Source: an uncultured Verrucomicrobia subdivision 3 bacterium | Lineage (GTDB): Bacteria > Verrucomicrobiota > Verrucomicrobiia > Limisphaerales > UBA11358 | Direction: 5' to 3' | DNA length: 60,137 nucleotides | Assembly (NCBI GenBank): GCA_903833055.1 | Contig: CAILDU010000048.1 | Coordinates: 1-60,137 of the forward strand | Part shown: piece by piece, positions 1,323-27,923 of the stretch | Numbering within the stretch: position 1 is the stretch's first letter | Layout of the letters: every line of letters starts with the position of its first letter | Program-made: the position numbers and the translations under genes | Notes under the pieces: generated by a model | What the model was told of the DNA's origin: nothing | What the model saw: the letters and a program-made list of their open reading frames with translations, nothing else | Databases searched by the model: none

Positions 1323-1535
1323 ATGAATCCTCAAGTTGTCACATTTAGACCAACCGGAAAAAACACGAATCGCGTTTTACTCGCGAAAACATTGGGCATT
1401 AATATGTCCGAAGTGATGAATGAACTAATGGAGAAGTATGGCGACGCCGAACTAAAGAAGCGGACTGCTCAACTGCAAAAGCAAATGGAGCGAGCGAAGG
1501 GATTTGAACCCTCGACGTTCACGTTGGCAACGTGA
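1323..1535 (+). CDS. small putative ribbon-helix-helix-like protein whose 3' end runs into the tRNA-Gly gene
   Basis: 70-aa ORF with a strand-helix-helix pattern (VVTFRP / TNRVLLAKTLG / MSEVMNELMEKYG). The last 50 nt overlap the antisense strand of the tRNA 3' half. Confidence 0.4.
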   Translation: MNPQVVTFRPTGKNTNRVLLAKTLGINMSEVMNELMEKYGDAELKKRTAQLQKQMERAKGFEPSTFTLAT

Positions 1536-1561
1536 TGCTCTACCAACTGAGCTACGCTCGC
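1486..1561 (-). tRNA. tRNA-Gly (anticodon GCC)
   Basis: 76-nt cloverleaf. Acceptor GCGAGCG/CGCTCGC, D-stem GCTC/GAGC, anticodon stem TCACG/CGTGA with loop TTGCCAA, T-loop TTCAAAT, and an encoded 3' CCA. Confidence 0.93.
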
Positions 1562-8400: not shown

Positions 8401-8909
8401 AGTTTTAATAATTCTTTCGGCGGCGTGAGTGCCTGCTGGAGAATTTTTGCGAACGTAATTTTTGGCACCCCAAGTTTGTCGTCAGGAATCGGCAAGCCGC
8501 CTTCGCAGACGTGAAAAATGCCGGCGGTCGTGCGGCGATCGCTTTTGGGATTGTGCAAAACACCTTGTTTGACGCGGTAAGAATTGATGATGTCGGAAGA
8601 AAAATCGTCGCGGTCAACTGGTAGCGAGAGCACGCGCGCGAGTCCGGCGCGGTCGAGCGTGAACGTGCGCGCGGGCAGCTTGGTCACCGGCGCATCTTGC
8701 AAATAGTCGTAGAGAAACGTCTGGATGCGCGCGTCGGCGGGGCAAAGGTGCTGGCCGAGCAGCCGGTCTTTCTCGCGCGATTGCGCGGCCATCGCGGCGG
8801 CGATCTCGACGAATTCCTTGTCGCCTTCGAGCGGCACGGGTGAGCAGCCGATGAGGGCGAGTTTGACGTTGATGTGCGCGATGAGATGTGCAGGCAACTG
8901 GCTGTTCAT
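5493..8909 (-). CDS. large conserved cytosolic protein; tentatively PPi-dependent phosphoenolpyruvate carboxykinase-like
   Basis: A single 1138-aa ORF with no signal peptide or TM segment. The size and general character match my recollection of the ~130-kDa PPi-PEPCK family. The functional call is from memory and is not verified. Confidence 0.5.
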   Translation of the reverse strand: MNSQLPAHLIAHINVKLALIGCSPVPLEGDKEFVEIAAAMAAQSREKDRLLGQHLCPADARIQTFLYDYLQDAPVTKLPARTFTLDRAGLARVLSLPVDRDDFSSDIINSYRVKQGVLHNPKSDRRTTAGIFHVCEGGLPIPDDKLGVPKITFAKILQQALTPPKELLKLPFTSTQPSPAECFVTLLIRPLVCPEVPGFTKKKTMEVRFFVPGNLVSNLDFVETIFENGGDPLLPENDAALDTEHWTGHTGCIILAPHLIKLTKKSVGLPSWDAATERQRRDGMCWKKEDELYNGGNAFKLTCRDETGVIVTIIADNYFGYCKKEVKTQLSYAANLFGLAEEEHAGGALVFQSYDLGEEFSGEAHVRQLGHRYEEMISQFASAMDAKPEGYAVDKKFPEILYVPHDANFDLKSQKVSWTNTMGDHAIKLSPEKTYVRPSGYKVRMEKPPGAGRQWRLVGTVAEGTYCHKPCTVSGGGKSEISKPITDAILTGPVFVSDMKNDFDRVAELIDRDYSNRFVEKSHADARTILSPERSLGSVIKLLTPDEHDYTPEYNAWLTGVPQHVKELVFVVKRYYKPEWGADWREHFAVDIINGTPGNELKCDNKKLVTTYLRVGFDGDGAWRTFGLRKDFHPAVKVQMEDDITASTVVPPGLLKDLPADIDKNHSLKFALNCEQRLFQRPDDAIHRGYDKQAEIDFVQPENFFSNYEPLTPANARDMVEDALGFHQFTAPMQKFVGEVAATGTPDYFVCTANPRIVDGKPTKNPRYLQKRPDLVRASETYLAEISARLRRRVPPEKPLYTPVTAVLPGRRNNPPETGIRALACYNPIHFFELPELFMEVICSMTGKSPSTTGAGSEGALTKGPFNALPPIIDLNNALVSFILTGQNAFVTAAGYVGPNLRVDHDVSLIVPEIWCRLSAEERDPKFLIANRFLEKCADFEHDGKKVLASRLGWRINARFVHNFFGRVFNHPQAVFTEAMLKPELQGKDIFVDGMDNIVTTQKRVAKMYFDDGSIAQACPPLQALLHIMLNDEWEGKHLDHADVRKLFTRENLLASPWYAARLAAKQKVDRNLWKRHVECLNQFLRRPNYTDVSEKLGIAERLTQARKTLEAVESANYPKTLIGTIGAEPIENYARAS

Positions 8910-9901: not shown

Positions 9902-11989
9902 CTACTTCGCATCCATTTTCCAGATGCCGTTCCAATTTTTTGGTGGATTCATGACGAGTTCGGCGCAGCGGGCGGATAAAGTTTTGCTCGGCCCGTCGGA
10001 AAATTCCTTGCCGATGGCGGCGAACATGATTTGCGCCTCGACGAAACGACCGAAGTGGTATTCGTCGAACGCTTTTTTATAGCGCGCGCAAATCTCCGTG
10101 AAGTTCGGCGGCGTGCACGGATTTTCACACTCGAACAATTCCACCGGCTCGCTCTTGCCTTTCACGATGACGCGGTCAATCAAGCGATGCTGACCCTGCG
10201 CGCTGAATTGCGCGAACGCGTCGCGCGTGACGAGCAGCCGCGCGCCGTAAAATTTCGTGAGCGCCTCGACGCGCGCGGCCTCGTTTACGGTGTCGCCGAC
10301 GAGGCCGTAATCGAGTCGCAGCGCCGAACCTTTGTTGCCCACCAACACGCCGCCCGCGTGCAGCGCAACACCGTAACCAAATAGTTTTTGCACTTCCGGC
10401 GTGAGCGTGGCGCGCAAATCTTCCATGGCGGAAATAAGTTTTTGCGCGGCGCGGCTGGCGCGGTCGGCGGCGTCCGGTTGTTTTTGCGGCGCGCCCCAGT
10501 AACTTAAAAATTGGTCGCCAAGAAAATGTTCGAGGTTGCCTTCCTCACCCATGATGGCGCTCGTCTGCGCTTCAAAAACTTGGTTGAGCAAATCGAACAT
10601 TCCTTTCGGGCCGAGCGCCTCGGCGAGCGGCGTGGAGTTTCGCAAATCGGTCAGCAGCAAAACCACGTCGGCGCGGCGCGGTTCCATTGAGCCGGGATCG
10701 GCGAGGACGGCTTCGAGCACGCGCGGCGAAAAATAAAGTCCCATCGTGTGCTTCAATTTCATTCGCTCCAGCCGTTCGACGACGAAATCGTAAACGAAGA
10801 CGACCAAGCCGCTCAACATCAGCACCAGCGTTGGCGGCACGACATGCATGGCTTCATTCGCCGAGCGCAAATGGTTCAATACAAAAAAAGTCAGAAACCA
10901 GTAAGCCGCGGTGACACCGACGACAATCAGCAGGCGTTTGAACGGTTGCTGGACGAGCAGGCAAAGCGCCCCAGCAATCACGCCCGACATGGCGGTTATG
11001 AATAAACAAGCCACCAATGAAGGTGCTTCGAGAAATTCGCCGTGCAGCGCGGCGTTGATAATTTGCAGATGAATTTCCGGCCCGGACATCGCTTTAGGAT
11101 CAAACGGCGTGTCATGAATATCTTGAAAAATTTCAGCGGTCGGGCCGATGAGAATAATTTTGCCCTTAAAAAATTTCCCGTTGTCGTAATTATGTTCCCA
11201 CAATTTTGGCGAAAGCACATCGCCAATGGGATGCGGCTGGTAGCCTTCGCCAGAGCGTGCGGTGTAGCGAAATAACCGGGCATCAAAGCCGGACGGGATG
11301 AGTTCTGGTCGGCCAAATTTGCGGAGCGCGCGGGCATCCATGGATTCGAGGACGGTTTGGGCGGGCAAAACATCACCGATTTGCGCGCCGGTCTGGCGGT
11401 AGCGCGCCCGCCGCAAGATGTCATCAAAATCGGGCCAGATGTTGACGTAACCCAGCCGGTCATCTTCCACTGGCGAATTGGTCTCGCTGATCTGAACTAC
11501 GGATGAATTGGGGAGCTGCAACTCCGTGAAATCACCGCGCCCGGTTTTTTTAGTGCTGATATTGTAGCCAATGATGACGCGGTCTTTGTATTTTTCGAGC
11601 GCGGCGCGCAGTTCGTCGTCGCCGTCGTTTTGCGAGGCGAAAACCAAGTCGAACATAATTACCTTTGCGCCTGCATCGGAAAGTTTTTCGATGAGCCGCG
11701 CCCAAACGGCGCGCGACCACGGAAAAGAATTTTGCAAATTTTTAAGGACGGGTTCGCGGCGAATTTCGTCGTCGCTGAAATCGGCGGCATAAACCGGCTT
11801 GTCAATACCGATGAGGACGAGGCGATCATCCATGGGCGTTTTGCGACCGAGCCGCGCCTGCCAGTCCTGCGCGGAAAATTCCATTTCCTGCAACGGCACA
11901 AACCCGCGCTGCCACAAAAATAAAAACACTAGCGTGCAGACCGCGCAGATGGCGAGGACGATGGCGGTGCGGCGGGCGGCGGGTTTCAT
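9902..11989 (-). CDS. CHASE2 sensor domain / class III adenylate (guanylate) cyclase
   Basis: N-terminal TM, a periplasmic CHASE2-like region, three TM helices, and a cyclase core (VVLLLTDLRNSTPLAE ... HFLGDQFLSYWGAP ... GLVGDTVNEAARVE). Confidence 0.9.
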   Translation of the reverse strand: MKPAARRTAIVLAICAVCTLVFLFLWQRGFVPLQEMEFSAQDWQARLGRKTPMDDRLVLIGIDKPVYAADFSDDEIRREPVLKNLQNSFPWSRAVWARLIEKLSDAGAKVIMFDLVFASQNDGDDELRAALEKYKDRVIIGYNISTKKTGRGDFTELQLPNSSVVQISETNSPVEDDRLGYVNIWPDFDDILRRARYRQTGAQIGDVLPAQTVLESMDARALRKFGRPELIPSGFDARLFRYTARSGEGYQPHPIGDVLSPKLWEHNYDNGKFFKGKIILIGPTAEIFQDIHDTPFDPKAMSGPEIHLQIINAALHGEFLEAPSLVACLFITAMSGVIAGALCLLVQQPFKRLLIVVGVTAAYWFLTFFVLNHLRSANEAMHVVPPTLVLMLSGLVVFVYDFVVERLERMKLKHTMGLYFSPRVLEAVLADPGSMEPRRADVVLLLTDLRNSTPLAEALGPKGMFDLLNQVFEAQTSAIMGEEGNLEHFLGDQFLSYWGAPQKQPDAADRASRAAQKLISAMEDLRATLTPEVQKLFGYGVALHAGGVLVGNKGSALRLDYGLVGDTVNEAARVEALTKFYGARLLVTRDAFAQFSAQGQHRLIDRVIVKGKSEPVELFECENPCTPPNFTEICARYKKAFDEYHFGRFVEAQIMFAAIGKEFSDGPSKTLSARCAELVMNPPKNWNGIWKMDAK

Positions 11990-12100: not shown

Positions 12101-12949
12101 ATGAAAACTTTTCTTCTTCTGGCCGGCTTGGTCGTTTGCACCCGCGTGTCGGTGCTGGCGGTGACGCCGCTGACAGAAAGCACTTTTACGGAAATCATCC
12201 GCACGGCAGATGTGGTCGCCGCCGCCAATAAATCCGTGACGCCCGCCGTGACGAATAATGTTTTCAAAGCGCCGGACTTGGTTCGCACTGGGCCGGCTTC
12301 GCGCGTGGAAATGACCGCGCCAGATCAAACGATTACGCGCGTCGGGGCAAACACAGTTTTCACTTTTGAGCCGGGCGGCAGAAATATTTTATTGGAAAAA
12401 GGCAGCGTGTTATTTCATCCGCCCGCCGGTGTCGGCGGCGGCACGGTTCGGTATCGCGGCACGGCGGCGGCGGTGCTGGGGACGACGATGATTTGCGTGG
12501 TGCTGCCGGACGGCAGTTTCAAAATTCTCGACCTCGAAGGCCATGTGCAGGTGACGCTGAAAAACAATACTCAAATTTTGCTGGAGGCCGGGCAGATGGT
12601 GATTGTGTCGCCGGATGGAAATGTGTTCAGCGACGTAATGGTTTTTAATCTCCAAGAACTTGCATCGCGTTTGTTACTGGTCGTAGGTTTTTCAAATCCA
12701 TTGTCCTCGCTGCCGTTCATTGCCACGGCGATTCAACTGCAAAACGACCAGATTCTCGCTGGCACATTGCCCAACCTCGTGTCGTTTTTGGTAGCCAGCT
12801 TGGGGCTGGAAATAATGCCGCTCCGAAATTTGCCGCCGTGGATGGTGAACGCGCCCGACCACACGCAGGTTTATGTTTCGCCGGTCACTACGTTTCCCAT
12901 TCCCAACCAGCCGTGGTATTTCGATGTTCACCACGACTTCGACAATTGA
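12101..12949 (+). CDS. secreted FecR-domain protein (paralog 1)
   Basis: Signal peptide MKTFLLLAGLVVCTRVSVLA. FecR-like core RVEMTAPDQTITRVGANTVFTFEPGGRNILLEKGSVLFH. Confidence 0.8.
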   Translation: MKTFLLLAGLVVCTRVSVLAVTPLTESTFTEIIRTADVVAAANKSVTPAVTNNVFKAPDLVRTGPASRVEMTAPDQTITRVGANTVFTFEPGGRNILLEKGSVLFHPPAGVGGGTVRYRGTAAAVLGTTMICVVLPDGSFKILDLEGHVQVTLKNNTQILLEAGQMVIVSPDGNVFSDVMVFNLQELASRLLLVVGFSNPLSSLPFIATAIQLQNDQILAGTLPNLVSFLVASLGLEIMPLRNLPPWMVNAPDHTQVYVSPVTTFPIPNQPWYFDVHHDFDN

Positions 12950-12984: not shown

Positions 12985-13863
12985 ATGAAAAACGAATTTT
13001 TGTTATTCGTCGCCTTCGCCAGCTTGGCACTCCCACTCGTTGCCGCGCCGCTGACGGAAAGCACGTTCACGGAAATCGTCAATGACGTGAACACGGTGTC
13101 CGCTACTGGTGACGCGACGACGGCGAAGTCGGGCGACGTTTTGAAAGCGCCGCAGCGCGTTCGCACCGGTCCGTCGTCGCGTGCGGAACTTACCGCGCCG
13201 GATAAGACGATTACGCGCGTCGGCGCAAATACGGTTTTTTCCTACGCAGACAGCGGACGCACATTGAATTTGGAACAAGGCAACGTCCTCTTTCACGCGC
13301 CAAAAGGTCTCGGCGGCGGCACGATTAAATCCGGCGGTGCGGCGGCGGCGGTGCTCGGCACGTCGTTGATTGTATCAGCGACAACCGGCGGCGGGTTCAA
13401 AGTAATTTTGCTGGAAGGCAAAGGCAAAGTGACTTTGCCAAATGGAAATTCCGTTACGCTCAAAGCCGGACAGGAAGTTTTTGTGCTGCCGGGCGGAACG
13501 GAATTCAGCAAAGTTTTCACCATCAATTTGGACAAGCTCGTCGCCGGTTCGCAATTGGTGAAAGGTTTTTCGCATGACCTCTCGTCGTTGCCGCTGATTC
13601 TGCTCGCCGTTCAAGATCAAGATTCGCAAATCAAATCCGGCGCATCGTCGGACACCGGCCAGCCGCCGGAATTTTTCCTGCCGCCGTCGCCACCGGGCAA
13701 CGGCCAAAACGTCCTCGACCCCGCCACCTACAACACGGCGGCGCACTCGCCGCTGAACAACCGGCAGTTCCGTTCGCTAAATAACAACCCCAACCAAGGC
13801 ACGCCGCCGAGTAACGTCGGCCCCGGCGGTCGACCGTTTGGCAGCACTGGATTCCGTGGATAA
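12985..13863 (+). CDS. secreted FecR-domain protein (paralog 2) with a Pro/Gly-rich tail
   Basis: Start at the ATG at 12985 (MKNEFLLFVAFASLALPLVA). It shares PLTESTFTEI and RAELTAPDKTITRVGANTVFSY...GNVLFH with paralog 1. Confidence 0.8.
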   Translation: MKNEFLLFVAFASLALPLVAAPLTESTFTEIVNDVNTVSATGDATTAKSGDVLKAPQRVRTGPSSRAELTAPDKTITRVGANTVFSYADSGRTLNLEQGNVLFHAPKGLGGGTIKSGGAAAAVLGTSLIVSATTGGGFKVILLEGKGKVTLPNGNSVTLKAGQEVFVLPGGTEFSKVFTINLDKLVAGSQLVKGFSHDLSSLPLILLAVQDQDSQIKSGASSDTGQPPEFFLPPSPPGNGQNVLDPATYNTAAHSPLNNRQFRSLNNNPNQGTPPSNVGPGGRPFGSTGFRG

Positions 13864-13881: not shown

Positions 13882-14910
13882 ATGAGCCTTAAAAAATATT
13901 TCCTCACGGCGGCTCTGGGATTGGTCGCGAGCGTGAGCGCCTTCGCACAAATGCCGAACGCCAGTCAGCAAGTGGATTCGCTACAACAGCGCCGCCAGTT
14001 GGAACAGTCCGCGCAAATGATGATTGCCTCCAACGCCGTGCCGGAACTTTACAGCGGCGAATCCAGCGATGTCGGCCCGCAGTCCGTGCTGCAAACCAAA
14101 ACGCGCCGCACTTACTTTCAGGCGTTTGCCGACGCGCAGTATTTCTACACGGACAACATGTTTCTCGCGAATCAGAAGAAGCAGGGCGCGGATGTCCTCG
14201 TCAGCACCGTGCAAGCCGCGCACGCGCCAACCGCGTATGATTTTGCGGACGGAAAATTTTCGCCGCGCCTCGGCTTCCAGCAGCAATGGTTCAACTACGG
14301 TTTGACCGGCCCGCAAACGGTGGATGCCTACAATTTCAGCACCCACACTTTCAGCCGCGCCAACCTTGACCAGTTTGATTTCAACGCCATGACCATTTTC
14401 AGCGACGTATCATGGAGTAAACAAAATTGGACTTTCACCGCTGGTGGTTTTTACCGCCAGCTCAACGACGCGCAAAACACCGACCAGTTTTATAACGAAT
14501 ACGTTCCGAACTGGGCGATTCGCTATGATTTATTTACGAGCGATAAAACCGCCTTGTCCATCGGCTACGAAGGTGATGCGCGCCTGACCGATACCGCCAG
14601 CGTGCCGCCGAAGACCGGTAGCAATTTTAACAACCGCGTGGACAACAGCCTCGTCGTCGCCGGCAGTTGGCGCTTGTGCCGCTACGCGATTTTGCAACCG
14701 TCCTACCGTTTTCAACAAACCCATTTCACCACCACTTGGCGCGATGATTATCTGAATTCTTTCGGCCTTGCGCTCTACATTCCGTTCAACGACTACGTCA
14801 CCCTGCGCGGCTACGTCAGCTACGACATTTTGAAGACCGATGGCTTCTACGTGGAAAACAGCGACACGCTCAACGCCGGTGTCGGCTTGAATCTCACTGT
14901 TCGTTTCTGA
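13882..14910 (+). CDS. putative outer-membrane beta-barrel protein
   Basis: Signal peptide ending AFAQ, alternating aromatic/polar beta-strand pattern, and a C-terminal LNLTVRF (terminal Phe). Confidence 0.65.
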   Translation: MSLKKYFLTAALGLVASVSAFAQMPNASQQVDSLQQRRQLEQSAQMMIASNAVPELYSGESSDVGPQSVLQTKTRRTYFQAFADAQYFYTDNMFLANQKKQGADVLVSTVQAAHAPTAYDFADGKFSPRLGFQQQWFNYGLTGPQTVDAYNFSTHTFSRANLDQFDFNAMTIFSDVSWSKQNWTFTAGGFYRQLNDAQNTDQFYNEYVPNWAIRYDLFTSDKTALSIGYEGDARLTDTASVPPKTGSNFNNRVDNSLVVAGSWRLCRYAILQPSYRFQQTHFTTTWRDDYLNSFGLALYIPFNDYVTLRGYVSYDILKTDGFYVENSDTLNAGVGLNLTVRF

Positions 14911-14917
14911 AATAAAT

Positions 14918-16504
14918 TTACTGCGCCGCGACCGGCGGCTTGTGGTAAGTGTGACACTCCGCGCAAGTGTCCGCCACGCCGCCACGCGGACTGTGGCACG
15001 TCGCGCATGTTTCCTTCGTGGGCAACAAAATATCCGCCGTGTTTTTACTGTGAACCGCGTCATGGCATTGCGTGCAGGCAATGTTTGTATGCTTCGCGTG
15101 ATTAAATTTCGCCTGCGCCAGCCAGCGTTCCGTCAGGATTGGCTTCGTAATTTCCGGCAACCCCGCGTTGGAATTTTTCACCTCGTGGCAATACGCACAG
15201 CCCGGAAAAATCGCGCGCGTCGCGCCACTCACATTCCCCACAATTATTTCCGGCGCAGTCGTAGCTGTGCTGAAGAAAATCCGTTTTTCCAAATCCTCGC
15301 CGCTGCCAAATTGCGTCCGTAAACCAGCGAGTTTCTTCGCTACGAAACCGTTCGCGTCTTCATCCCTGCCAGTCTGCGCGACTAAATTCATATATTGATT
15401 TGGCAGACTCCGTAAAAACGCCGACACAAATTCCGCGCTGCCATGCGGTAGTTGCAATTCCGGTGTTTGCGGATCGAATTGTAGCGAGTGACAAACGCGG
15501 CAGTTCGGCTCGAACGCCACCGGCTTCATGAACGCGCCCGCCGCATCCGGCGAATGACAAAACGCGCAGTCCAGCTTCGCGCCGCCGGGCAATTTCGGAA
15601 TCGTCGCGCCCGTCAGATGCAGCGCGTGATTAAATTTCAACGTGTCCGGATCGCGCAATTTTTCCGTGATAAAACGAAACTGCGGATGGTCGTCCGCAAA
15701 ATGGTTGATTGTTTCCGCTTTCCGCTTTCCGCTTTCCGCTTTTACCCCCGCCATCTTCGTCGCGTCGGCGTGGCAGAAATTGCAGTTCGCATCCGTCGTC
15801 GCTGCAATTTTTATTCCCTGATGTTCCGCGTGGCAGAATGTGCAGGAAATTTGCGCCGCATCCGGCTGATGCACATTTTTACCCGCGTGACATTTCAAGC
15901 ACGACGCATCAATCGCCGTTGGCTCGGCAGCTTTGGCGAGCGCGAGCTTCTTCAAATCCCAAATTCCCGGCTCCGCGTGCAGCGCAACATTTGCCATCCC
16001 ATTCGGTCCCAAATTCCCCGCGACGTGACACGCGCCACAGTTTTGATTCAAGTGATTCGTCACCGCCAGCGCCGCGAACGCCGCGCCGGAATGCGGACTG
16101 GAAATTGTTCCGGGGCTGATGAAATTATTCCGCCACGGCGGATTGCCCAGCACAACCAAAAGCACCGCGCACGATGCCGCGATGACCGCGAGCGTCACGC
16201 GCCCGCGCCAGACGCGCAACGTCGGCACCGGCGAACATTTGGCAATTGGCCGACAGCAACTTCCATTCGGCAGCGGGCCGGACTCGCATTCGCCGCCGGT
16301 GCGCGTGCAAATCCAGCGGCCTTTCGTTTCGCCTTCTTTAACTTTCAGGACGGGTTTGCACTCGGCGGTTGCGCGACAATTTCCTTTTTGATCCGGCCCA
16401 AGCCGACACGCATTGCCTTCGCACGCGTGACCGCAAATCCAGTTTTGATTTGGCCGCGCGTAGTTATGCGCGTCAAAATCCGGCGCGGGCAGTTGCTCGC
16501 TCAT
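14918..16504 (-). CDS. membrane-anchored decaheme c-type cytochrome with a Cys-rich N-terminal domain
   Basis: Ten CxxCH motifs: CGACH, CLKCH, CTFCH, CNFCH, CAFCH, CRVCH, CAYCH, CTQCH, CATCH, CAECH. One TM helix (VTLAVIAASCAVLLVVL) follows about 95 residues containing 10 Cys. The start at 16504 overlaps the upstream stop (ATGA). Confidence 0.9.
   Translation of the reverse strand: MSEQLPAPDFDAHNYARPNQNWICGHACEGNACRLGPDQKGNCRATAECKPVLKVKEGETKGRWICTRTGGECESGPLPNGSCCRPIAKCSPVPTLRVWRGRVTLAVIAASCAVLLVVLGNPPWRNNFISPGTISSPHSGAAFAALAVTNHLNQNCGACHVAGNLGPNGMANVALHAEPGIWDLKKLALAKAAEPTAIDASCLKCHAGKNVHQPDAAQISCTFCHAEHQGIKIAATTDANCNFCHADATKMAGVKAESGKRKAETINHFADDHPQFRFITEKLRDPDTLKFNHALHLTGATIPKLPGGAKLDCAFCHSPDAAGAFMKPVAFEPNCRVCHSLQFDPQTPELQLPHGSAEFVSAFLRSLPNQYMNLVAQTGRDEDANGFVAKKLAGLRTQFGSGEDLEKRIFFSTATTAPEIIVGNVSGATRAIFPGCAYCHEVKNSNAGLPEITKPILTERWLAQAKFNHAKHTNIACTQCHDAVHSKNTADILLPTKETCATCHSPRGGVADTCAECHTYHKPPVAAQ
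15713..15740. repeat. heptanucleotide micro-array (TTCCGCT)x4
   Basis: Four perfect tandem copies. In frame on the minus strand they encode KAESGKRKAE just after heme motif 4. Confidence 0.95.
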
Positions 16505-17316
16505 CGCGCACCTCCGGAAAATCCAAAGACCAAAATAATGTGTAGCGCGGTGAAAATCATCAGTCCGTAAGTCAGCGGAATGTGGACGAACAGCCACAAT
16601 CGCAACGCGAGTTGCAGCGCGCGGTGATAATCCAATCCGTCTTTCTGGCGGACGAGCGCGGTAAGTTTCTCAATCTTTTCTTTTTCCGCGTCGTTGGCAA
16701 AACGGCGCAGGTCGTCGAGTTCCGCGAGCAGCACGCTCACTTCACGCCGCGACTCGGCCAGATGGTTCCAGAAATTTTTCGGGCCGGCGAAAAATGGCGC
16801 GAGGCGTTTCGTGTAAAATTCCGCGATGACCAGTGATTTTGCATCCGCGCCGAGTGCCAGAGTTTCCGCTTCCGTTTTCAATGCATGACGAATGGTGGGA
16901 ATTTTTTCAAAGACAACTTCGCCGCCGCGCGTCGCGAGCCGACGCGGCAAAACACGGCTGAAAAATAATCCGACCATGCCGCTGCCGCTAACCAGAACGA
17001 ACAGCCACGCGAGCACGACCTCAAACCAGCCGTGCGGCGCGCGAAAATTCAGGTGGATGAGAAACAGCAGCGTTGTGAAAAAGCCGAGGTAGATGTGGAT
17101 TTGCAGCCACGTCTCAGATTTGCCGAGCGGCAGGAATGGCAGTTTTTTCCGCACGTTGTAGATCGTCAGCACGAACATTCCCGCGAGCAGCGCCCAGCCG
17201 GTGAGGTAAGCGTAATTCGGTAGCGCATTGTATTTTGCATTCAGCCACAACGCTCCTGCAGTTGCGGCAATCAGCGCGAGCAAACCAAAAATAAATTGTT
17301 GGCGGAAGCGATTCAT
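16501..17316 (-). CDS. polytopic membrane protein with two intramembrane His-x13-His pairs (candidate di-heme b cytochrome)
   Basis: The start at 17316 (MNRFRQQF) overlaps the upstream stop (ATGA). There are five hydrophobic helices. HIYLGFFTTLLFLIH and HIPLTYGLMIFTALH each lie within a TM helix. Confidence 0.7.
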   Translation of the reverse strand: MNRFRQQFIFGLLALIAATAGALWLNAKYNALPNYAYLTGWALLAGMFVLTIYNVRKKLPFLPLGKSETWLQIHIYLGFFTTLLFLIHLNFRAPHGWFEVVLAWLFVLVSGSGMVGLFFSRVLPRRLATRGGEVVFEKIPTIRHALKTEAETLALGADAKSLVIAEFYTKRLAPFFAGPKNFWNHLAESRREVSVLLAELDDLRRFANDAEKEKIEKLTALVRQKDGLDYHRALQLALRLWLFVHIPLTYGLMIFTALHIILVFGFSGGAR

Positions 17317-19037
17317 AACTTCAGCCACTTCGAAAGCGCATCGAGATTGTTCAGGTTCATTCGCTCCAAAGCGCCGTGCGGACACGCACGTTCGCACGCG
17401 GGGCCACCGTGGTTTTCCACGCAGAGATCGCACTTCGTCGCCTTCGCGATGGGTTTCATTTCCTGATCCACGAGCAGTTCGCCGCGTTCGTCGCGCGCCT
17501 CGACCATGCGGATGGCGTCGTAGGGACAATTCGTAAAACAGGATTTGCAGCCGATGCACGTCGCGGGATTGATGACGACCTGGCCGGCGAATGACTCGCG
17601 ATGGATCGCACCGGTCGGGCAGCCGATCATGCAAACCGGATCGGCGCAGTGCATGCAGGCATTGGCGATCATCAGCCGCCCGGCGCTCGGGCCGTGGCGC
17701 AGGAAGCGCGGGTTGTTGTCGTGCGTGGAGGCGCAGGCGCGCACGCAATCGTCGCAACGCGTGCAGCGGTCGAGGTCAATGACCATCGTGGCCGTGCCGT
17801 TGAAGAAACGGTTCTCGGTGAGAAATTCCAAAATCTCCGCGCCAACTTTTTCGCGTGTGGCGATTTCGGGTGGCGCGGAATCCAAATCGTCTTCAACTTT
17901 TTCGACGGGCGGTGGCAGTTCGTTTTTCGGCAGCGACGGCAAAACAATTTCCTCCATCACGCGCGTCGGCACGATGAGCAAATGCGTGTAGCCGATGGCG
18001 CGGAGCGAGAACTGCATATTCACCGCCGCATCTTTGTTGCGCCAGTTGTGGGCAATTTCGTTTAGCCCAAAAATTTGTCCCGCGCCGATGTAGTTCAGCG
18101 TGCGTTCGCCGCCGCCGAATTTCTGGCTGACGCGCGCGAAGCCGGCGCGCAGCAAAACGATTCCGTTCGGATAATCACCTTCGCCAACAATGACGGGCTC
18201 TTTCTCCGGTCGCACGCTGCCGGATTGCGCGAGGCGTTTGTATTCACCCGACCAGTCGTAGTCGCCATAGGTCGAAAATTCCACGGCCTCGGCCACGCGG
18301 TCGAGTTGTTCCTTCGAGAGATTTTTGAACAGCGGCGTGGCGCGGAGATACGAGGCCAGCGCGCGTTCGCGGTAAATTTTATTGATGTGTGTGCGGAGCG
18401 CGTCGTCGTATTTCATAAGGTCGCGCAGACCTTGCCAGCGGATTTCCAAAAGTTCCGCGTCGTCGCTGTCGGCAAAAATTGTGGACGTGCGCGCCATGCG
18501 GCTCAACGCGGCGATTTCGCCGAAGAATTCTCCCGCGAACATTTCCGCCGTGCGGTGCTGATCCAAAATGCGCGGCACGTCCTGCAAAAAAACGCGCGTC
18601 TCCTTTTCATTTTGTCGCGCGCTGACGCCGGAACTTTGCCCGAGCAAGGTGCGCGGCAACATTTCCGGCGGACGCGAACGGTTCCAAAGCTGCGCGAGCG
18701 TGCGGAAGACGCCTTTTTTATTGGTCGCCTGACGACCGAGCAACGACGGCGGGAGATCAGGTTTCAACACTACGCGCGCCGCGCCTTGCAAAATCAGAAA
18801 CGCCGACGTGCCGTAATCGCCCTGACGCATGATGATTTCGCCTTTGCGAAATTTCAGAATGCGCGCGTCGTTGCGGAGGATTTCGCGGAGCGGCGTGCGT
18901 TTGGGAAATTTTTCGGCATCCATCCCACTGAACGGCACGGTCAGAAGCAGACGGCTCACGTCTTCGTCGGTCATGTTCGCGTCGAACGCGGCGTCCCAGC
19001 GTTGCGGGCGTTCGAGAATGGTCGGGGCGGCGGGCAT
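17313..19037 (-). CDS. tandem cyclic-nucleotide-binding domains fused to a four-cluster [4Fe-4S] ferredoxin (DmsB/NrfC-like)
   Basis: cNMP phosphate-binding cassette FGEIAALSRMARTSTIFA and a second CNB-like domain. Four Cys groups: CTRCDDCVRAC, CMHCADPVCMIGCP, CIGCKSCFTNCP, CDLCVENHGGPACERACP. Confidence 0.9.
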   Translation of the reverse strand: MPAAPTILERPQRWDAAFDANMTDEDVSRLLLTVPFSGMDAEKFPKRTPLREILRNDARILKFRKGEIIMRQGDYGTSAFLILQGAARVVLKPDLPPSLLGRQATNKKGVFRTLAQLWNRSRPPEMLPRTLLGQSSGVSARQNEKETRVFLQDVPRILDQHRTAEMFAGEFFGEIAALSRMARTSTIFADSDDAELLEIRWQGLRDLMKYDDALRTHINKIYRERALASYLRATPLFKNLSKEQLDRVAEAVEFSTYGDYDWSGEYKRLAQSGSVRPEKEPVIVGEGDYPNGIVLLRAGFARVSQKFGGGERTLNYIGAGQIFGLNEIAHNWRNKDAAVNMQFSLRAIGYTHLLIVPTRVMEEIVLPSLPKNELPPPVEKVEDDLDSAPPEIATREKVGAEILEFLTENRFFNGTATMVIDLDRCTRCDDCVRACASTHDNNPRFLRHGPSAGRLMIANACMHCADPVCMIGCPTGAIHRESFAGQVVINPATCIGCKSCFTNCPYDAIRMVEARDERGELLVDQEMKPIAKATKCDLCVENHGGPACERACPHGALERMNLNNLDALSKWLKL

Positions 19038-19055
19038 TTTCAGTTCGGAATTGTG

Positions 19056-20363
19056 TTAAGCATCCAAAACCAAATCGTTTTTCGGGCGGCAAACACAGGT
19101 GAAACAACTGCCGGCTTCCGGCGTAGCGTCAGGCTTCTTCAAATAATCCACGTCGCCGGATTTAATGGCGACGACGCACGAACCGCAACTGCCCGCGCAG
19201 CAGCCGGAATCAATTTTTACGCCCTGCGCTTTCGCAAATTCCAAAATATTTTCCGCCGACGGCTCCCAGCGCACGGTTTTATTTGAGCGCGCGAACGTCA
19301 CATTTATTTTTGCGAGATGAACCGTTTCGCTCGGCGTGGGCGCGGCCGTTTTTTTCTTCACCGTCGCCGGACCGAACGCTTCGAAGTGGACGACGCTGTC
19401 CGGCACGCCCCACGCTTCGAGGCCGTCGGTCAGACTTTTCATGAACGCGCCACTGCCGCAGAGGTAATATTCAAAATTATTCGACGGCAGAATTTCCTTC
19501 AAAAGCTCAATGCCCACGCGGCCTTCGTGATGAAAATCTTTTCCCTTCACGTCTTTGTCGCTGGGTTTGCTGTAAGCGATATGCAGATGAATGTTGTCGT
19601 TTTCCGCCGCGAGTTTTTCCAACTCGGCCTTGTGAATGTGTTCGCGGACATTGCGGACGCCGAAGAAAAAATACGCCTCACGCTTCGAGCCGCTCGCGGC
19701 AATCGCGTTCGCCATGCTCAACATCGGCGTGATGCCGACGCCGCCCGCGAGCAGCACGATGGGATTCGACTTGGCCATGTCCAAAAAGAAATGGCCGGTC
19801 GGCGCTTTGACATTCAGGATGTCGCCTTCCTTCACCACGTCGGTAAAAAAACTGGAGCCTGCGCCCGGCGGCAACTCCGGTTTGTCTGGCGGCGATTTTT
19901 CCTTTTTGATCGTGACGCGGTAATATTCTTTTTGATGCGGACTGTCGGAAAGCGAGTAGCAGCGGATGAGCGGTTTGTCGCGTCCGGGCACATCGAGTTG
20001 AAACGTGAGATACTGGCCGGGCTTGAATTGCGGCAGCGGGCGACCGTCGTGCGGCTTCAAATAAAACGCGTTCACGTCCTCGCACTCGGGATTTTTTTTG
20101 ACGACGGAAAATTTTCGTAAACCGTTCCAGCCGGTCTGCGCCTGTTCGGCCTCGCGGCAACGGATTTTGGTTTCGGCGAGTTGGGCGCGCAGTTTTTCCA
20201 ACGCGACGCGTTGCTGGCGGTTTTCGGCCCAAACGCGAAGGAGCGAGCGGAAAATTTCCAACGTCAGCCACGCGAGCAGTCCGGCGAGCAGCGCAAAGCC
20301 GACGGCGAAGCTCAAACTGTCTCCGCTGACTTGCCGCAGGGAATCAATTAGGGTTGCATTCAC
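19056..20363 (-). CDS. membrane-anchored FNR-like FAD/NAD(P)H oxidoreductase with a C-terminal 2Fe-2S ferredoxin domain
   Basis: N-terminal TM plus coiled coil. RCYSLSD (FAD), GGVGITPMLSM (NAD(P)H) and CCAGSCGSC...CFTCVC (plant-type 2Fe-2S). The start codon at 20363 is GTG, so the start is uncertain. Confidence 0.88.
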   Translation of the reverse strand: MNATLIDSLRQVSGDSLSFAVGFALLAGLLAWLTLEIFRSLLRVWAENRQQRVALEKLRAQLAETKIRCREAEQAQTGWNGLRKFSVVKKNPECEDVNAFYLKPHDGRPLPQFKPGQYLTFQLDVPGRDKPLIRCYSLSDSPHQKEYYRVTIKKEKSPPDKPELPPGAGSSFFTDVVKEGDILNVKAPTGHFFLDMAKSNPIVLLAGGVGITPMLSMANAIAASGSKREAYFFFGVRNVREHIHKAELEKLAAENDNIHLHIAYSKPSDKDVKGKDFHHEGRVGIELLKEILPSNNFEYYLCGSGAFMKSLTDGLEAWGVPDSVVHFEAFGPATVKKKTAAPTPSETVHLAKINVTFARSNKTVRWEPSAENILEFAKAQGVKIDSGCCAGSCGSCVVAIKSGDVDYLKKPDATPEAGSCFTCVCRPKNDLVLDA

Positions 20364-21535
20364 GCTGCCACTCCATTAACCAATTTGTCGCCGTGAGTAA
20401 AACAATTTGTCACCCAGCCGCAGGTTTTGTCGCCGGAATTATTCTGGCGGCGAACATTTCCAGTGGCGCGGAAACGCCGCCCAAATTTCTCGGCGCGAAT
20501 TCCTGCGCCAATTCCAGTTGCCACGGCGGCGGTGGCGCGAAACAAAATCAGTTTCTCGTCTGGTCGCTCAAGGATTTTCATTCGCAACGCCCCGCCGCGA
20601 CGCTTACGACGGCGCGCTCGAAGCAAATCGCCGACGCACTGGAAATCAAAGACCCGTCCGCCAGTTCCCGTTGCACGACTTGCCACGCGCCGTTACGTGA
20701 CGTGCCGGAAAGTCTGCGCGGTGAAAATTTCAAGGTGAGCGAATGCGTTTCGTGTGAAAGCTGCCACGGCGCGGCGGAAAATTGGTTGCGCGCGCATACG
20801 CGACACGATTACACGCGCGCCGACCGCACTGCCGCTGGAATGCGCGACTTGCAAAATCTTTACGTCCGCGCGAACACCTGCATCGCGTGCCACCAGAATG
20901 TGGACGCCGACATTCTCAAGGCCGGGCATCCGGAATTAATTTTTGAACTCGACGGCCAGAGCGTCGCCGAACCGAAACATTGGTGCGCGGAGAAAAACGG
21001 CAACGGCGCGCAGGCTTGGCTGGTTGGTCAGGCCGTGGCATTACGAGAAATGAGCTGGCAACTAGCCAATGAAAAATCTCCGACAGAAAGTGAAATCAAC
21101 CGATGGAATGCGCTTGTTTGGCTGATGCAGACGGCCGCGCCGGAGAGCAATTTGAAAATGCCGCCAAAAACCAGAGCCGTTACGATTGCCTACGCTGCCA
21201 GCACCCTTCAAGGCGAAAGTGACCAAGTTGCGCGTGACTTCGCAACGACTGACTGGTCGGATACAAAGACGAGTAAGATTTTGTCTGCATTCGCCAATTC
21301 AAACGAGTCGTTCCGCGACACGGCCGTTTCGCAAAATCTCCAAGCCCGCCGCGCCGAGCGGCTGGTGCTCGCGCTCGACCGCCTCGTCGCCTCGCTGCCG
21401 GAGTATAAAAACAACGAGCCAATGCAATCGTCGCTCAATCAACTTTTCAAACTCGCGCAATCCATTCCCGACTTCGACCCCAAAGAGTTTGCCGCCGCGC
21501 TGGAGAAACTTTCCGCCGCGCTCGCCGCGCATTGA
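20354..21535 (+). CDS. secreted multiheme c-type cytochrome (3 CxxCH plus 1 Cx4CH)
   Basis: CANSSCH, CTTCH, CESCH and CIACH. The ORF-track start (TTG at 20354) overlaps the divergent gene. GTG at 20393 (VSKTICHPAAGFVAGIILAANISSGA) is a more plausible signal-peptide start. Confidence 0.8.
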   Translation: MHSRCHSINQFVAVSKTICHPAAGFVAGIILAANISSGAETPPKFLGANSCANSSCHGGGGAKQNQFLVWSLKDFHSQRPAATLTTARSKQIADALEIKDPSASSRCTTCHAPLRDVPESLRGENFKVSECVSCESCHGAAENWLRAHTRHDYTRADRTAAGMRDLQNLYVRANTCIACHQNVDADILKAGHPELIFELDGQSVAEPKHWCAEKNGNGAQAWLVGQAVALREMSWQLANEKSPTESEINRWNALVWLMQTAAPESNLKMPPKTRAVTIAYAASTLQGESDQVARDFATTDWSDTKTSKILSAFANSNESFRDTAVSQNLQARRAERLVLALDRLVASLPEYKNNEPMQSSLNQLFKLAQSIPDFDPKEFAAALEKLSAALAAH

Positions 21536-26573: not shown

Positions 26574-27923
26574 TCACGGCGCGAGGCGATTCACGTTCAA
26601 CGGCAGTTCGCTGGCTTTCAATCTGGCTTCCACATCGCGGCGCTGCGCATCCAGCAAATCCAATTTTTTTATCGTGGCGCTGGCGCTGGCGGGACGATGA
26701 AAGAAACCTTTTTTCGGACCGCCGAGAAAATCAGTGAAGGCTTGATGGTAGCCAGCGGCAACCGGCGCGAGCGGCGGCGTGAGGCGAAGCTGGATGAGTT
26801 CCAAATCGCGCAGTTTGGTGCGAAAAATTTCCGCCTGCCGTTCCGCTGGAAAATTTTGCAGGGCGGACTGCAAAGAAATTTCCGCATACACCGGCAGCGA
26901 GTTGGAGGCGTAACGGACATCCACCGGCACGGCGAGCGCGGCGTCTAGTTTTTCGCGACTGACGACGGAGGTCCATTGCGGACCGGGCGCGCGCGCCGCA
27001 AACGCGACGACGCGGAGCGCCCACCATTTTTCCACATCGAGCGGACGTTGAAAATTTTCGCGGAACGCGGCGAAGAAAGCGGATTGCCAATTTTCATGCG
27101 ACGGCAATTGCGCGAGCATCGCGCGCACATTGGCTGCGCCGTTTTTCAGCGCGAGCAAATCGTGAACGAACAATTGCGCGCTGGCGAGATAGACGCCGTC
27201 GTCGTTGCCGTTTAGCTGCGCGTCGGTCGGCCAGCTCATTTGCTCGAAGGTGAGCGCGGGATAATTTTGCAGCGTGCGGCGCGCGGCGGCGAGTGAATCA
27301 AGTCCGCGCCGCTTTTCTTCGAGCCGCGTTTGAGCAAGGCCATCAATGGTTTTATTGGGCGCGGACAAAATGACTTTGGTTTCCGCCGCTTCCAAAATTT
27401 GCCGCGCCAGTCCGTCCGCAAGCCAGGCGGGAACGACCGAGGAACGGCCGCTGACCGGCGCGTTGCGATTGGCAAGTTCGAGCAACAGCACGGTGCTGAA
27501 CGCGCGCGCGCAACGGTTGCGCGGAATGAGGTCAGGCAATTCCACTCGGTAATTCCAAGTGCGAATAAACGGTTGTGCGGCGATGACTACGTCTTCGTCG
27601 GCCGTGCGTGCGGGATGCAGCGCGAGGAAAATTTTGCCATTCCACGGTGCGTTGGCAGCCATGCCGATTTGCGTCCACAGTGCGACCTTGAAGCGCTCGG
27701 CGGAAACGGCGAGCAACGATGGTTCGAGCCGGAGCAAATCAGTGTTCGTGCCCGCTTCGGCGCGGCGGAAATAGGGATTGATGGGCGACGTGACAGAAAC
27801 AATGAACTGGCCGGAAACGCTGCTGGTGGCGGCGGGCGGGGAAAATGAAGTTTGTCCGCGGGCGGCGGCGAGGAACGTCAGTAGGCCGACCACCAGCGCA
27901 CGGAGTGTGCGCGAACGGTTCAT
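26574..27923 (-). CDS. hypothetical secreted protein
   Basis: 449-aa ORF with signal peptide (LRALVVGLLTFLAAARGQ). Its start overlaps the upstream zinc-ribbon gene stop (ATGA at 27920-27923). No family recognised. Confidence 0.7.
   Translation of the reverse strand: MNRSRTLRALVVGLLTFLAAARGQTSFSPPAATSSVSGQFIVSVTSPINPYFRRAEAGTNTDLLRLEPSLLAVSAERFKVALWTQIGMAANAPWNGKIFLALHPARTADEDVVIAAQPFIRTWNYRVELPDLIPRNRCARAFSTVLLLELANRNAPVSGRSSVVPAWLADGLARQILEAAETKVILSAPNKTIDGLAQTRLEEKRRGLDSLAAARRTLQNYPALTFEQMSWPTDAQLNGNDDGVYLASAQLFVHDLLALKNGAANVRAMLAQLPSHENWQSAFFAAFRENFQRPLDVEKWWALRVVAFAARAPGPQWTSVVSREKLDAALAVPVDVRYASNSLPVYAEISLQSALQNFPAERQAEIFRTKLRDLELIQLRLTPPLAPVAAGYHQAFTDFLGGPKKGFFHRPASASATIKKLDLLDAQRRDVEARLKASELPLNVNRLAP

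Follow-up and report, generated by a model that had tools for sequence, protein, structure and literature searches.

A Verrucomicrobial copy of the ptdCDEFG gene cluster and its predicted transmembrane electron chain

Introduction

The ptdABCDEFG gene cluster was named by Elbon, Stewart and Glass in a 2023/24 preprint, in which its function was called "completely unknown" (bioRxiv 10.1101/2023.11.21.568154). The subunits described there are a pentaheme cytochrome with a beta-sandwich (PtdA), the porin PtdB, an FAD/NAD(P) oxidoreductase (PtdC), a periplasmic tetraheme cytochrome (PtdD), a protein with two Fe-S motifs (PtdE), a protein called "ferric reductase-like" (PtdF) and a decaheme cytochrome of the periplasm (PtdG) (bioRxiv 10.1101/2023.11.21.568154). 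The hosts are marine or saline Alpha- and Gammaproteobacteria, Nitrospirales and Planctomycetes, and ptdAB are among the highly transcribed genes in metagenome-assembled genomes (MAGs) from oxygen-deficient zones (ODZ) (bioRxiv 10.1101/2023.11.21.568154). A full-text literature search found no second paper using the ptd name. Here we describe the ptd genes of a 60,137-nucleotide stretch of DNA (contig CAILDU010000048.1, assembly GCA_903833055.1; hereafter the window) from an uncultured Verrucomicrobia subdivision 3 bacterium. Judged by its sequence, the locus is a Verrucomicrobial (Limisphaerales) copy of ptdCDEFG, with ptdAB absent nearby and ptdD inverted. The system having already been named, the cluster itself is no discovery; what is new here is the evidence on heme-ligand invariance and geometry, a fusion of PtdE to PtdF, the four-cluster count of PtdE, the Cys-rich domain of PtdG and an association with a nucleotide cyclase. 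We lean towards the view that Ptd is a quinone-independent system for outward transmembrane electron export, from NAD(P)H to fourteen periplasmic c-hemes.

By analogy, the closest functional precedent for such a split NOX-like chain would be MsrQ with Fre, with Tmc, Hmc and Dsr as architectural precedents. In E. coli, a separate cytoplasmic reductase of the FNR family, Fre, feeds the membrane b-heme protein MsrQ, which passes electrons to a periplasmic partner (PMC12525009). The quinone pool has been argued not to be the donor of MsrQ, ubiquinone has been found bound to it, and the cofactors of the ferric-reductase domain are held by a four-helix bundle formed by h2-h5 (PMC12525009). As in MsrQ and Fre, the Ptd reductase is a separate polypeptide, and PtdF is predicted to form an h2-h5 bundle. 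However, MsrQ has six transmembrane (TM) helices with one heme and FMN, whereas PtdF has five TM helices, four invariant histidines (two hemes predicted) and a 110-residue insert. Furthermore, the route from flavin to heme in Ptd includes a [2Fe-2S] cluster and an Fe-S wire of four clusters, and the acceptors of Ptd are multiheme cytochromes, unlike the molybdoenzyme served by MsrQ.

The same comparison can be drawn with NOX, FRE and SpNOX, where electrons pass from NAD(P)H through a flavin and two stacked bis-His b-hemes across the membrane, as predicted for Ptd. As in these proteins, PtdF has its His pairs on TM helices three and five, with a spacing of about 13 residues. The NOX dehydrogenase is fused after TM6, whereas that of Ptd is separate, membrane-anchored and accompanied by extra Fe-S carriers; PtdF also lacks TM6, and its acceptor would be heme c instead of O2 or Fe(III). 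In architecture, Ptd is like Tmc, Hmc and DsrMKJOP of sulfate reducers and Rnf-MmcA of Methanosarcina, which combine cytoplasmic Fe-S proteins with a cytochrome b in the membrane and a multiheme cytochrome c in the periplasm. These complexes differ from Ptd in their HdrD-like CCG proteins and NarI-like cytochrome b, and electron flow in them is usually inward, from periplasmic hydrogen or formate oxidation. To our knowledge, none of them has an FNR-type NAD(P)H module or a cyclic nucleotide monophosphate (cNMP)-binding domain.

The best Pfam match of PtdF, which stays below threshold, is DUF4405 (PF14358). A protein of this family has been purified and binds heme b, with four central histidines (PMC11334425). 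DUF4405 proteins, modelled with six TM helices, have been associated with ApbE flavinylation clusters (PMC11334425), whereas PtdF has a large cytoplasmic insert and is encoded among genes for Fe-S, FNR-like and multiheme proteins.

The ptd Locus in the Window

Four close-packed genes, ptdC, ptdE, ptdF and ptdG, occupy the minus strand of the window at 14918-20363. The first two are separated by 18 bp, while ptdE and ptdF overlap by ATGA at 17313-17316 and ptdF and ptdG at 16501-16504. A first-pass annotation of this DNA had listed the same four genes in the same order, and their coordinates, the motifs quoted for them and both overlaps were all found in the DNA. It had also read the overlaps as implying stoichiometric co-expression; the overlaps are real, but this remains inference only, and several orthologous loci are gapped at these junctions (100-250 bp in several, about 2.1 kb in one). 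In addition, the annotation had let the chain end in ten c-hemes, which has to be revised: a conserved tetraheme cytochrome, PtdD, also belongs to it, and marine relatives add the PtdA pentaheme and the PtdB porin. The divergent ptdD gene, the Cys-rich domain of PtdG (about 100 aa) and the existing literature name were overlooked there. A scan of the locus for sigma-70 promoters and terminators gave counts not above those of shuffled controls, and an Rfam scan found no RNA element in the ptd region.

The assignment to ptd rests on comparison with L038, a full ptdA-G locus labelled Alphaproteobacteria. In tblastn searches, PtdC to PtdG of L038 matched the window at all of the expected genes (E from 5e-164 to 1e-5), with 46% identity for PtdC, 29% for PtdD, 45% for PtdE, 43% for PtdF and 24% for PtdG. 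The heme counts (4 and 10) and domain contents of the window proteins are the same as those of the preprint. However, no match to PtdA or PtdB, an adjacent pair in the described cluster, was found in the 60-kb window, and ptdD, which in that cluster is placed between ptdC and ptdE, is inverted and divergent here. Another departure from the published description is that PtdG, with an 8-Cys domain in the cytoplasm and a TM anchor, is not simply periplasmic. Also, the Verrucomicrobial hosts come from freshwater, soil and bog, going by the names of the MAG records, and not from marine or saline sites.

PtdF, a Putative Di-heme Cytochrome b

The protein on which the proposed electron path turns is PtdF (16501-17316, minus strand), a putative di-heme cytochrome b of 271 aa with five TM helices. 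In its AlphaFold2 (AF2) model, built from a 117-sequence alignment with a predicted local distance difference test (pLDDT) score of 95.3, helices span residues 2-29, 35-58, 67-88 and 97-129, followed by a cytoplasmic helical domain and a helix at 209-266. In the DNA these correspond to TM1 (17230-17313), TM2 (17143-17214), TM3 (17047-17118), TM4 (16945-17028), the cytoplasmic domain (16609-16944) and TM5 (16519-16608), all on the minus strand. TM5 runs on from a long cytoplasmic helix, and the chain ends five residues past it in the model. The first-pass annotation had placed two His-x13-His pairs in TM helices, and the model and the predicted topology agree in putting all four residues there: H74 (17095-17097) and H88 (17053-17055) are carried by the motif HIYLGFFTTLLFLIH of TM3, and H245 (16582-16584) and H259 (16540-16542) by HIPLTYGLMIFTALH of TM5.

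These histidines are nearly invariant in a large family. An exhaustive HMMER search collected 1717 clusters (50% identity) at E<=1e-3, 313 of them at E<=1e-30. Aligned with 141 representatives (36-54% identity), PtdF shows 100% invariance at H74 and H88 and 98% at H245 and H259; G40, W70, G113, G116 and W241 reach 98-100%.

The orientation of PtdF can be read from two sources. Its charge counts obey the positive-inside rule for an N-in topology, and a natural fusion protein, P0198 (843 aa; locus L033, 8001-10532), joins a complete PtdE to the N-terminus of PtdF; both indicate that the PtdF N-terminus is cytoplasmic, and the fusion puts PtdE on the same side. In L033, the fusion gene is followed by a 10-heme PtdG, and no PtdC or PtdD was found within 8 kb. 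An N-in topology places TM3 and TM5 parallel to each other, so that in the model both would run from inside to outside, with H74 and H245 at an inner level near the cytoplasmic face and H88 and H259 at an outer level near the periplasmic face.

Co-evolution within the family is consistent with this geometry. Mean-field direct coupling analysis (DCA) was run on 380 family sequences (effective number 225), with about two pairs expected per helix pair in the top 100. The top 100 contain four pairs each for TM2-TM3, TM3-TM4 and TM4-TM5 and eight for TM5-TM2, which closes a ring. TM3-TM5 is at background, and the strongest of its pairs, I87-A257, has a parallel arrangement in register with H88 and H259. 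The couplings fit a four-helix bundle of TM2-3-4-5 in which TM3 and TM5 stand diagonally opposite each other and leave space for hemes, as consistent support for the model and not as proof. The bis-His motifs of PtdF, with i/i+14 spacing, thus lie on helices 3 and 5 of a predicted h2-h5 bundle, as they do in ferric-reductase domains, and heme binding is predicted.

The Input Modules PtdC and PtdE

PtdC (19056-20363, minus strand; 435 aa) has the Pfam domains of an NAD(P)H:FAD reductase that is anchored in the membrane and ends in a plant-type [2Fe-2S] domain. An N-terminal TM anchor (residues 17-37, 20253-20315) is followed by FAD_binding_6 (19788-20111, 35.5 bits), NAD_binding_1 (19434-19754, 69.4 bits) and Fer2 (19080-19286, 38.8 bits, E=9e-10), each above its cut-off. 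The motifs RCYSLSD and GGVGITPMLSM and the C-terminal 2Fe-2S motif, from which the first-pass annotation had recognised an FNR-like reductase, are instances of the signature RxYS, GGxGxxP and Cx4Cx2C...C of PDR, Hcr or PaaE type reductases, and these motifs are kept in orthologs. The best NCBIfam match is to the reductase half of flavohemoprotein (269 bits, under the cut-off).

PtdE (17313-19037, minus strand; 574 aa) joins cNMP-binding domains (about 17943-18920; Pfam cNMP_binding, 78 bits against a cut-off of 27.5, E=5e-22) to a C-terminal 4x[4Fe-4S] wire domain (17343-17789; Fer4 families). The phosphate-binding cassette of the first cNMP domain (18468-18545), G-x2-FGEI-x-ALSR-x2-R-x2-T, fits the CAP/PKA-type pattern FGE[LI]AL...R[ST]A and is invariant in 32 orthologs; since the cassette is invariant, nucleotide binding is probably retained. 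The same 32 orthologs keep all 16 Cys of the four ferredoxin-type motifs, of the form CxxCxxCxxxC(P), an arrangement found in wire subunits of the DmsB, HycB and NrfC type. Furthermore, residues 418-565 align with complete four-cluster subunits in the PDB, namely HycB3 (E=1.4e-17), HycB, ArrB and NrfC, and four clusters are therefore expected, in place of the two motifs stated in the preprint (bioRxiv 10.1101/2023.11.21.568154). PtdE reached no equivalog cut-off in NCBIfam, and no Tat or Sec export signal was found in it.

The Multiheme Cytochromes PtdG and PtdD

PtdG (14918-16504, minus strand; 528 aa) is a membrane-anchored decaheme cytochrome c. Its periplasmic domain (14921-16114) contains exactly ten CXXCH motifs and is preceded by a single helix (16139-16195) that serves as a signal-anchor. 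The 100 residues before the helix (16205-16504) form a domain of two 4-Cys repeats, W-x-C...C-x2-GP-x3-G-x-C-x5-C-x-P. Since the c-heme domain has to lie in the periplasm and the TM helix is preceded by arginines, the 8-Cys domain would be cytoplasmic, and from its sequence it probably binds metal. The ten CXXCH motifs and the eight Cys (C24, 33, 43, 49, 66, 73, 83 and 90) are invariant in 33 orthologs, including those of Planctomycetes, and ten further His, one per heme, are conserved; the CXXCH, His and Cys sites together range from 91 to 100%. The 8-Cys arrangement is kept in Verrucomicrobia, Planctomycetes, L033, L038 and L039, and no relatives of the N-domain were found in Pfam or the PDB. 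In L033 (about 10540-10850), L038 (about 8400-8667) and L039 (about 5740-5842) the domain lies 5' of the called start, the deposited proteins are N-truncated, and the domain had escaped notice. The AF2 model of PtdG, made from a shallow alignment, has a pLDDT of 42 and is too poor for use.

The second cytochrome, PtdD (20393-21535, plus strand), is a secreted c554-like tetraheme protein (Pfam Cytochrome_C554) encoded divergently from ptdC. The mechanical open reading frame (ORF) begins at TTG 20354, whereas GTG 20393 yields a canonical signal peptide. Taken as mechanical ORFs, ptdC (from GTG 20363, minus strand) and ptdD (from TTG 20354, plus strand) overlap head to head. A ptdD start at GTG 20393 leaves only 29 bp between the two starts, so that both promoters must lie in neighbouring coding region. 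PtdD has one CX4CH and three CXXCH motifs plus four conserved distal His (25 orthologs).

Both proteins have the marks of multiheme cytochromes c, PtdG with its signal-anchor and PtdD with its signal peptide, and heme attachment is predicted from the motifs. Since each heme has one conserved distal His, PtdG and PtdD look like pure bis-His wires lacking an open catalytic site.

Conservation of the Cluster

A scan of one genome per species gave 32 loci, nearly all labelled Verrucomicrobiota and mostly Limisphaerales, with Luteolibacter, Akkermansiaceae and Verrucomicrobiales also represented; one Verrucomicrobiota contig among them holds only part of a gene. Two loci carry other labels, L012 (CAYPTV010000257.1, 'Bifidobacteriaceae') and L007 (JAMFSJ010000060.1, 'Methylacidimicrobium fagopyrum'). 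Their ptd genes are Limisphaerales-like, at 76-85% identity, and the contigs are probably mis-binned or mis-labelled. In tblastn searches with the window proteins, the order ptdC-ptdE-ptdF-ptdG appeared in every locus whose flanks were long enough, with PtdF identity as low as 47%. Clustered homologs of all five proteins, PtdC, D, E, F and G, are present in the window and in 26 of the 32 Verrucomicrobial loci, and the remaining six loci end at contig ends. Verrucomicrobial ptdD adjoins ptdC divergently in every locus with sufficient upstream flank. In one Limisphaerales MAG (L003, 1777-3904), about 2.1 kb of extra DNA separates ptdE from ptdF, compared with the 4-nt overlap of most loci, and may stem from a mobile element or from faulty assembly.

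Beyond Verrucomicrobiota, the same five proteins are encoded in L037, L038 and L039, where the tetraheme gene lies within the operon between ptdC and ptdE; L037 and L039 thus also have the clustered set. L037, on a 239-kb Planctomycete contig, reads FNR, c554, c554, cNMP/Fe-S, PtdF-like protein and multiheme cytochrome, and L038 and L039 are similar. The two c554 genes of L037 (3808-6133) are tandem PtdD-like tetraheme genes. No match to PtdA or PtdB was found within 8 kb of any Verrucomicrobial locus or in L037. Overall, the set is kept from Limisphaerales to Planctomycetes and L038 at 24-46% identity to the window proteins, with gene order locally rearranged. The genes are thus strictly co-conserved across phyla, and the lack of co-conservation that the first-pass annotation had named as evidence against its chain is not what is seen.

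The Verrucomicrobial porin-multiheme cytochrome cluster of He et al. was considered as the same system and rejected, as it consists of an 8-heme cytochrome and a 20-strand porin, with no genes for FNR, Fe-S or cytochrome b proteins (PMC5615132, PMC6344600).

Proposed Electron Path and Its Alternatives

Gene content, sequence motifs and cofactor-binding signatures, together with the invariance, the predicted topology, the synteny and the fusion described above, are the basis on which we infer cofactor occupancy, subunit contacts, direction of flow, regulation and acceptor as follows. NAD(P)H would reduce the FAD of membrane-tethered PtdC, from which electrons would pass to the [2Fe-2S] cluster of the same protein and on to the four [4Fe-4S] clusters of cytoplasmic PtdE, docked on the cytoplasmic helical domain of PtdF. 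Two stacked bis-His b-hemes, set between TM3 and TM5 of PtdF, would carry them across the membrane and into the ten bis-His c-hemes of PtdG, which would be anchored beside PtdF by its TM helix and its 8-Cys metal-binding domain. Soluble tetraheme PtdD would then provide the exit to a periplasmic or cell-surface acceptor. In the Verrucomicrobial variant without ptdAB, the endpoint is probably periplasmic, or an unrelated outer-membrane (OM) route could be used. The intact cNMP cassette of PtdE suggests that flux or assembly may be under the control of cAMP or cGMP.

Two arguments shape this path. No quinone-interacting subunit, whether NrfD, NapC or another, was found in the cluster (Pfam scan of the window; L037-L039), and the lack of an NrfD- or NapC-type subunit suggests a bypass of the quinone pool. 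Outward electron flow is favoured by both redox potential and membrane potential, while inward flow to NAD(P)+ (about -320 mV) runs against the membrane potential and is strongly uphill from c-type hemes. The outward direction is proposed because inward flow would be doubly uphill and the cluster has no coupling subunit.

Several observations weigh against this scheme, most of them concerning the family to which PtdF belongs. PtdF passes no Pfam threshold of any cytochrome b family. DUF4405 matches it with 16.9 bits (E=0.009), where the cut-off is 26.7, and a few close homologs hold a precomputed PF14358 flag. Among 117 aligned members, sub-threshold matches are to DUF4405 in 43, Ni_hydr_CYTB in 18, Ferric_reduct in 13 and DUF4079 in 2; 7 of the 117 also match Cytochrom_C_asm, and the remainder are scattered over unrelated families with one to four members each. 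Ferric_reduct (PF01794) has no match in the window PtdF, and its 13 sub-threshold matches reach E=5e-4 at best. Ferric-reductase domains have six TM helices, and the AF2 model of PtdF has five. Foldseek, which suits all-helical membrane folds poorly, was used for the fold comparison proposed in the first-pass annotation; it returned no match below E=0.3 for the PtdF model (pLDDT 95) against the PDB, the best being a chemoreceptor ligand-binding domain at E=0.34. PtdF had no match in the PDB by sequence or by profile search. With hhalign, the PtdF family profile aligned with E. coli MsrQ at E=0.12, pairing W70xxxH74...H88 with W147xxxH151...H164, which is suggestive only, and gave nothing against E. 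coli YodB. Furthermore, the DCA rests on about 225 effective sequences and its enrichment is only moderate. PtdF might also interact with quinone, by analogy with the ubiquinone bound to MsrQ (PMC12525009). Finally, L033, where no PtdC lies nearby, may hint that the electron donor differs in some lineages and that NAD(P)H is not the universal donor.

To aid the Pfam models, the cytoplasmic insert of PtdF was deleted in silico in ten constructs. All matches remained sub-threshold and were confined to di-heme b families. The 66-residue DUF4405 model fits both hairpins, TM2-3 and TM4-5, and Ferric_reduct matched one of the ten constructs (E=2e-3, model positions 1-52 of 121). In insert-deleted relatives, Ni_hydr_CYTB covers nearly the whole mini-protein at E=2-4e-4. 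By analogy, PtdF thus probably works like a di-heme b protein of the ferric-reductase-domain or DUF4405 type, and it probably belongs to the same broad clan; family-level membership is not reached. PtdF is a distinct family, with five TM helices and a 110-residue cytoplasmic insert. The split NOX-type chain claimed by the first-pass annotation passed the computational tests, the annotation's own refuting criteria included, as a mechanism and an analogy, but not as a statement of membership in the NOX/FRE family.

These near full-length Ni_hydr_CYTB matches, though sub-threshold, are also what speaks for PtdF as a quinone-reactive cytochrome b, resembling NarI, CybB or HydC, that exchanges electrons between the quinone pool and the periplasmic multihemes, with PtdC and PtdE as an auxiliary or regulatory input. 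The ubiquinone seen in MsrQ, a ferric-reductase-domain protein (PMC12525009), and the absence of PtdC near the L033 genes point the same way. We nonetheless regard this as unlikely, as nearly all loci keep PtdC and PtdE together with PtdF, PtdE is naturally fused to PtdF, and a quinol oxidase would have no need of a chain of five Fe-S centres up to the cytoplasmic heme. Nor was a quinone-site motif recognised, though none was specifically searched for.

The intact phosphate-binding cassette of PtdE, together with a cassette of CHASE2 cyclase, FecR and OM-barrel genes that adjoins the operon in Limisphaerales, could instead indicate that Ptd is chiefly a redox and cyclic-nucleotide sensor or signalling device, which signals the periplasmic redox state to the cytoplasm or the other way round and is no bulk conduit. 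This seems improbable: Pfam and NCBIfam reveal no output domain (HTH, kinase, GGDEF or similar) in any Ptd protein, the roughly 22 redox centres are far above those of any known sensor, and ptdAB are among the highly transcribed genes of ODZ MAGs (bioRxiv 10.1101/2023.11.21.568154).

That the chain runs inward, with periplasmic cytochromes taking electrons from Fe(II), reduced humics or nitrite-linked donors to make NADH or NADPH for biosynthesis, strikes us as very improbable. Bis-His multiheme wires are reversible in principle, and ptd occurs in nitrite-oxidising Nitrospirales, which need reverse electron flow (bioRxiv 10.1101/2023.11.21.568154). However, transfer from the positive to the negative side meets both of the energetic obstacles set out above, and no proton- or sodium-coupling subunit is encoded in the cluster, either in the window or in L037-L039.

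Lastly, the idea that the ptd genes are neighbours by chance or inherited synteny and form no single machine, for which one could cite the uninformative promoter and terminator scan and the intergenic gaps of some orthologous loci (100-250 bp, and about 2.1 kb between ptdE and ptdF in one), is effectively refuted by the 4-nt start/stop overlaps, the natural E-F fusion and the survival of the set in Verrucomicrobiota, Planctomycetes and L038 at such low identity despite local rearrangement.

The Cyclase Neighbourhood

Downstream of ptdG lies a group of genes that could bear on the control of the outward export proposed for Ptd. An adenylate/guanylate cyclase of 695 aa with a CHASE2 domain (9902-11989; Pfam CHASE2, E=1e-39, and Guanylate_cyc) is encoded on the same strand as ptd. 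On the plus strand, two secreted FecR-domain proteins (12101-12949 and 12985-13863; Pfam FecR) are followed by an OM-barrel-like protein (13882-14910), which lies between the FecR genes and ptdG. The cyclase stands beside the ptd block in 19 Limisphaerales loci and is absent from the flanks of L021, L022 and L024, of more distant Verrucomicrobia and of the non-Verrucomicrobial loci. The FecR and OM-barrel genes are conserved in many Limisphaerales loci only. The OM protein was also considered as an equivalent of PtdB, and this was rejected for want of any similarity between the two.

Modules of CHASE2 with FecR, and of a CHASE2 cyclase with an OM-barrel, have been described (PMC5192318, PMC13001267). 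The FecR and OM-barrel genes probably form a sensing cassette with the cyclase and are not part of the electron chain. It is possible that the cyclase supplies the cyclic nucleotide sensed by PtdE, a suggestion that rests on adjacency in one order. A further step, which we put forward as doubtful speculation, would make Ptd a cyclic-nucleotide-gated electron valve, in which an envelope signal acts through the CHASE2/FecR/OM-barrel cassette to raise cAMP or cGMP, the nucleotide acts on PtdE, and NAD(P)H is discharged to the periplasm through PtdF and PtdG independently of quinone; the 8-Cys domain of PtdG would then provide an additional site, for metal or redox, by which the decaheme is clamped onto the Fe-S module.

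Elsewhere in the window, a tRNA-Gly(GCC) at 1486-1561 (minus strand) is the sole Rfam and ARAGORN match. Two minus-strand ORFs, 5493-8909 (1138 aa) and 26574-27923 (449 aa), have no Pfam match at E<=1e-5.

Implications

At 1717 clusters (50% identity), PtdF forms a large family, and the five-gene cassette recurs in Verrucomicrobiota and Planctomycetes. The four PtdF histidines, the E-F fusion, the Cys-rich domain of PtdG, the corrected cluster count of PtdE and a candidate upstream cyclase provide handles for experiment. If the valve were real, transmembrane electron export would gain a new class, one that is regulated and conserves no energy, and that would be widespread among marine bacteria and the Planctomycetes-Verrucomicrobia-Chlamydiae (PVC) superphylum. 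Should the proposed mechanism hold, NAD(P)H reducing power would be placed directly onto periplasmic multiheme wires, with the quinone pool bypassed and a second messenger in control. This would be relevant to redox balancing, to humic and iron reduction in bogs, soils and lakes, and to nitrogen-cycle chemistry in oxygen-deficient waters.

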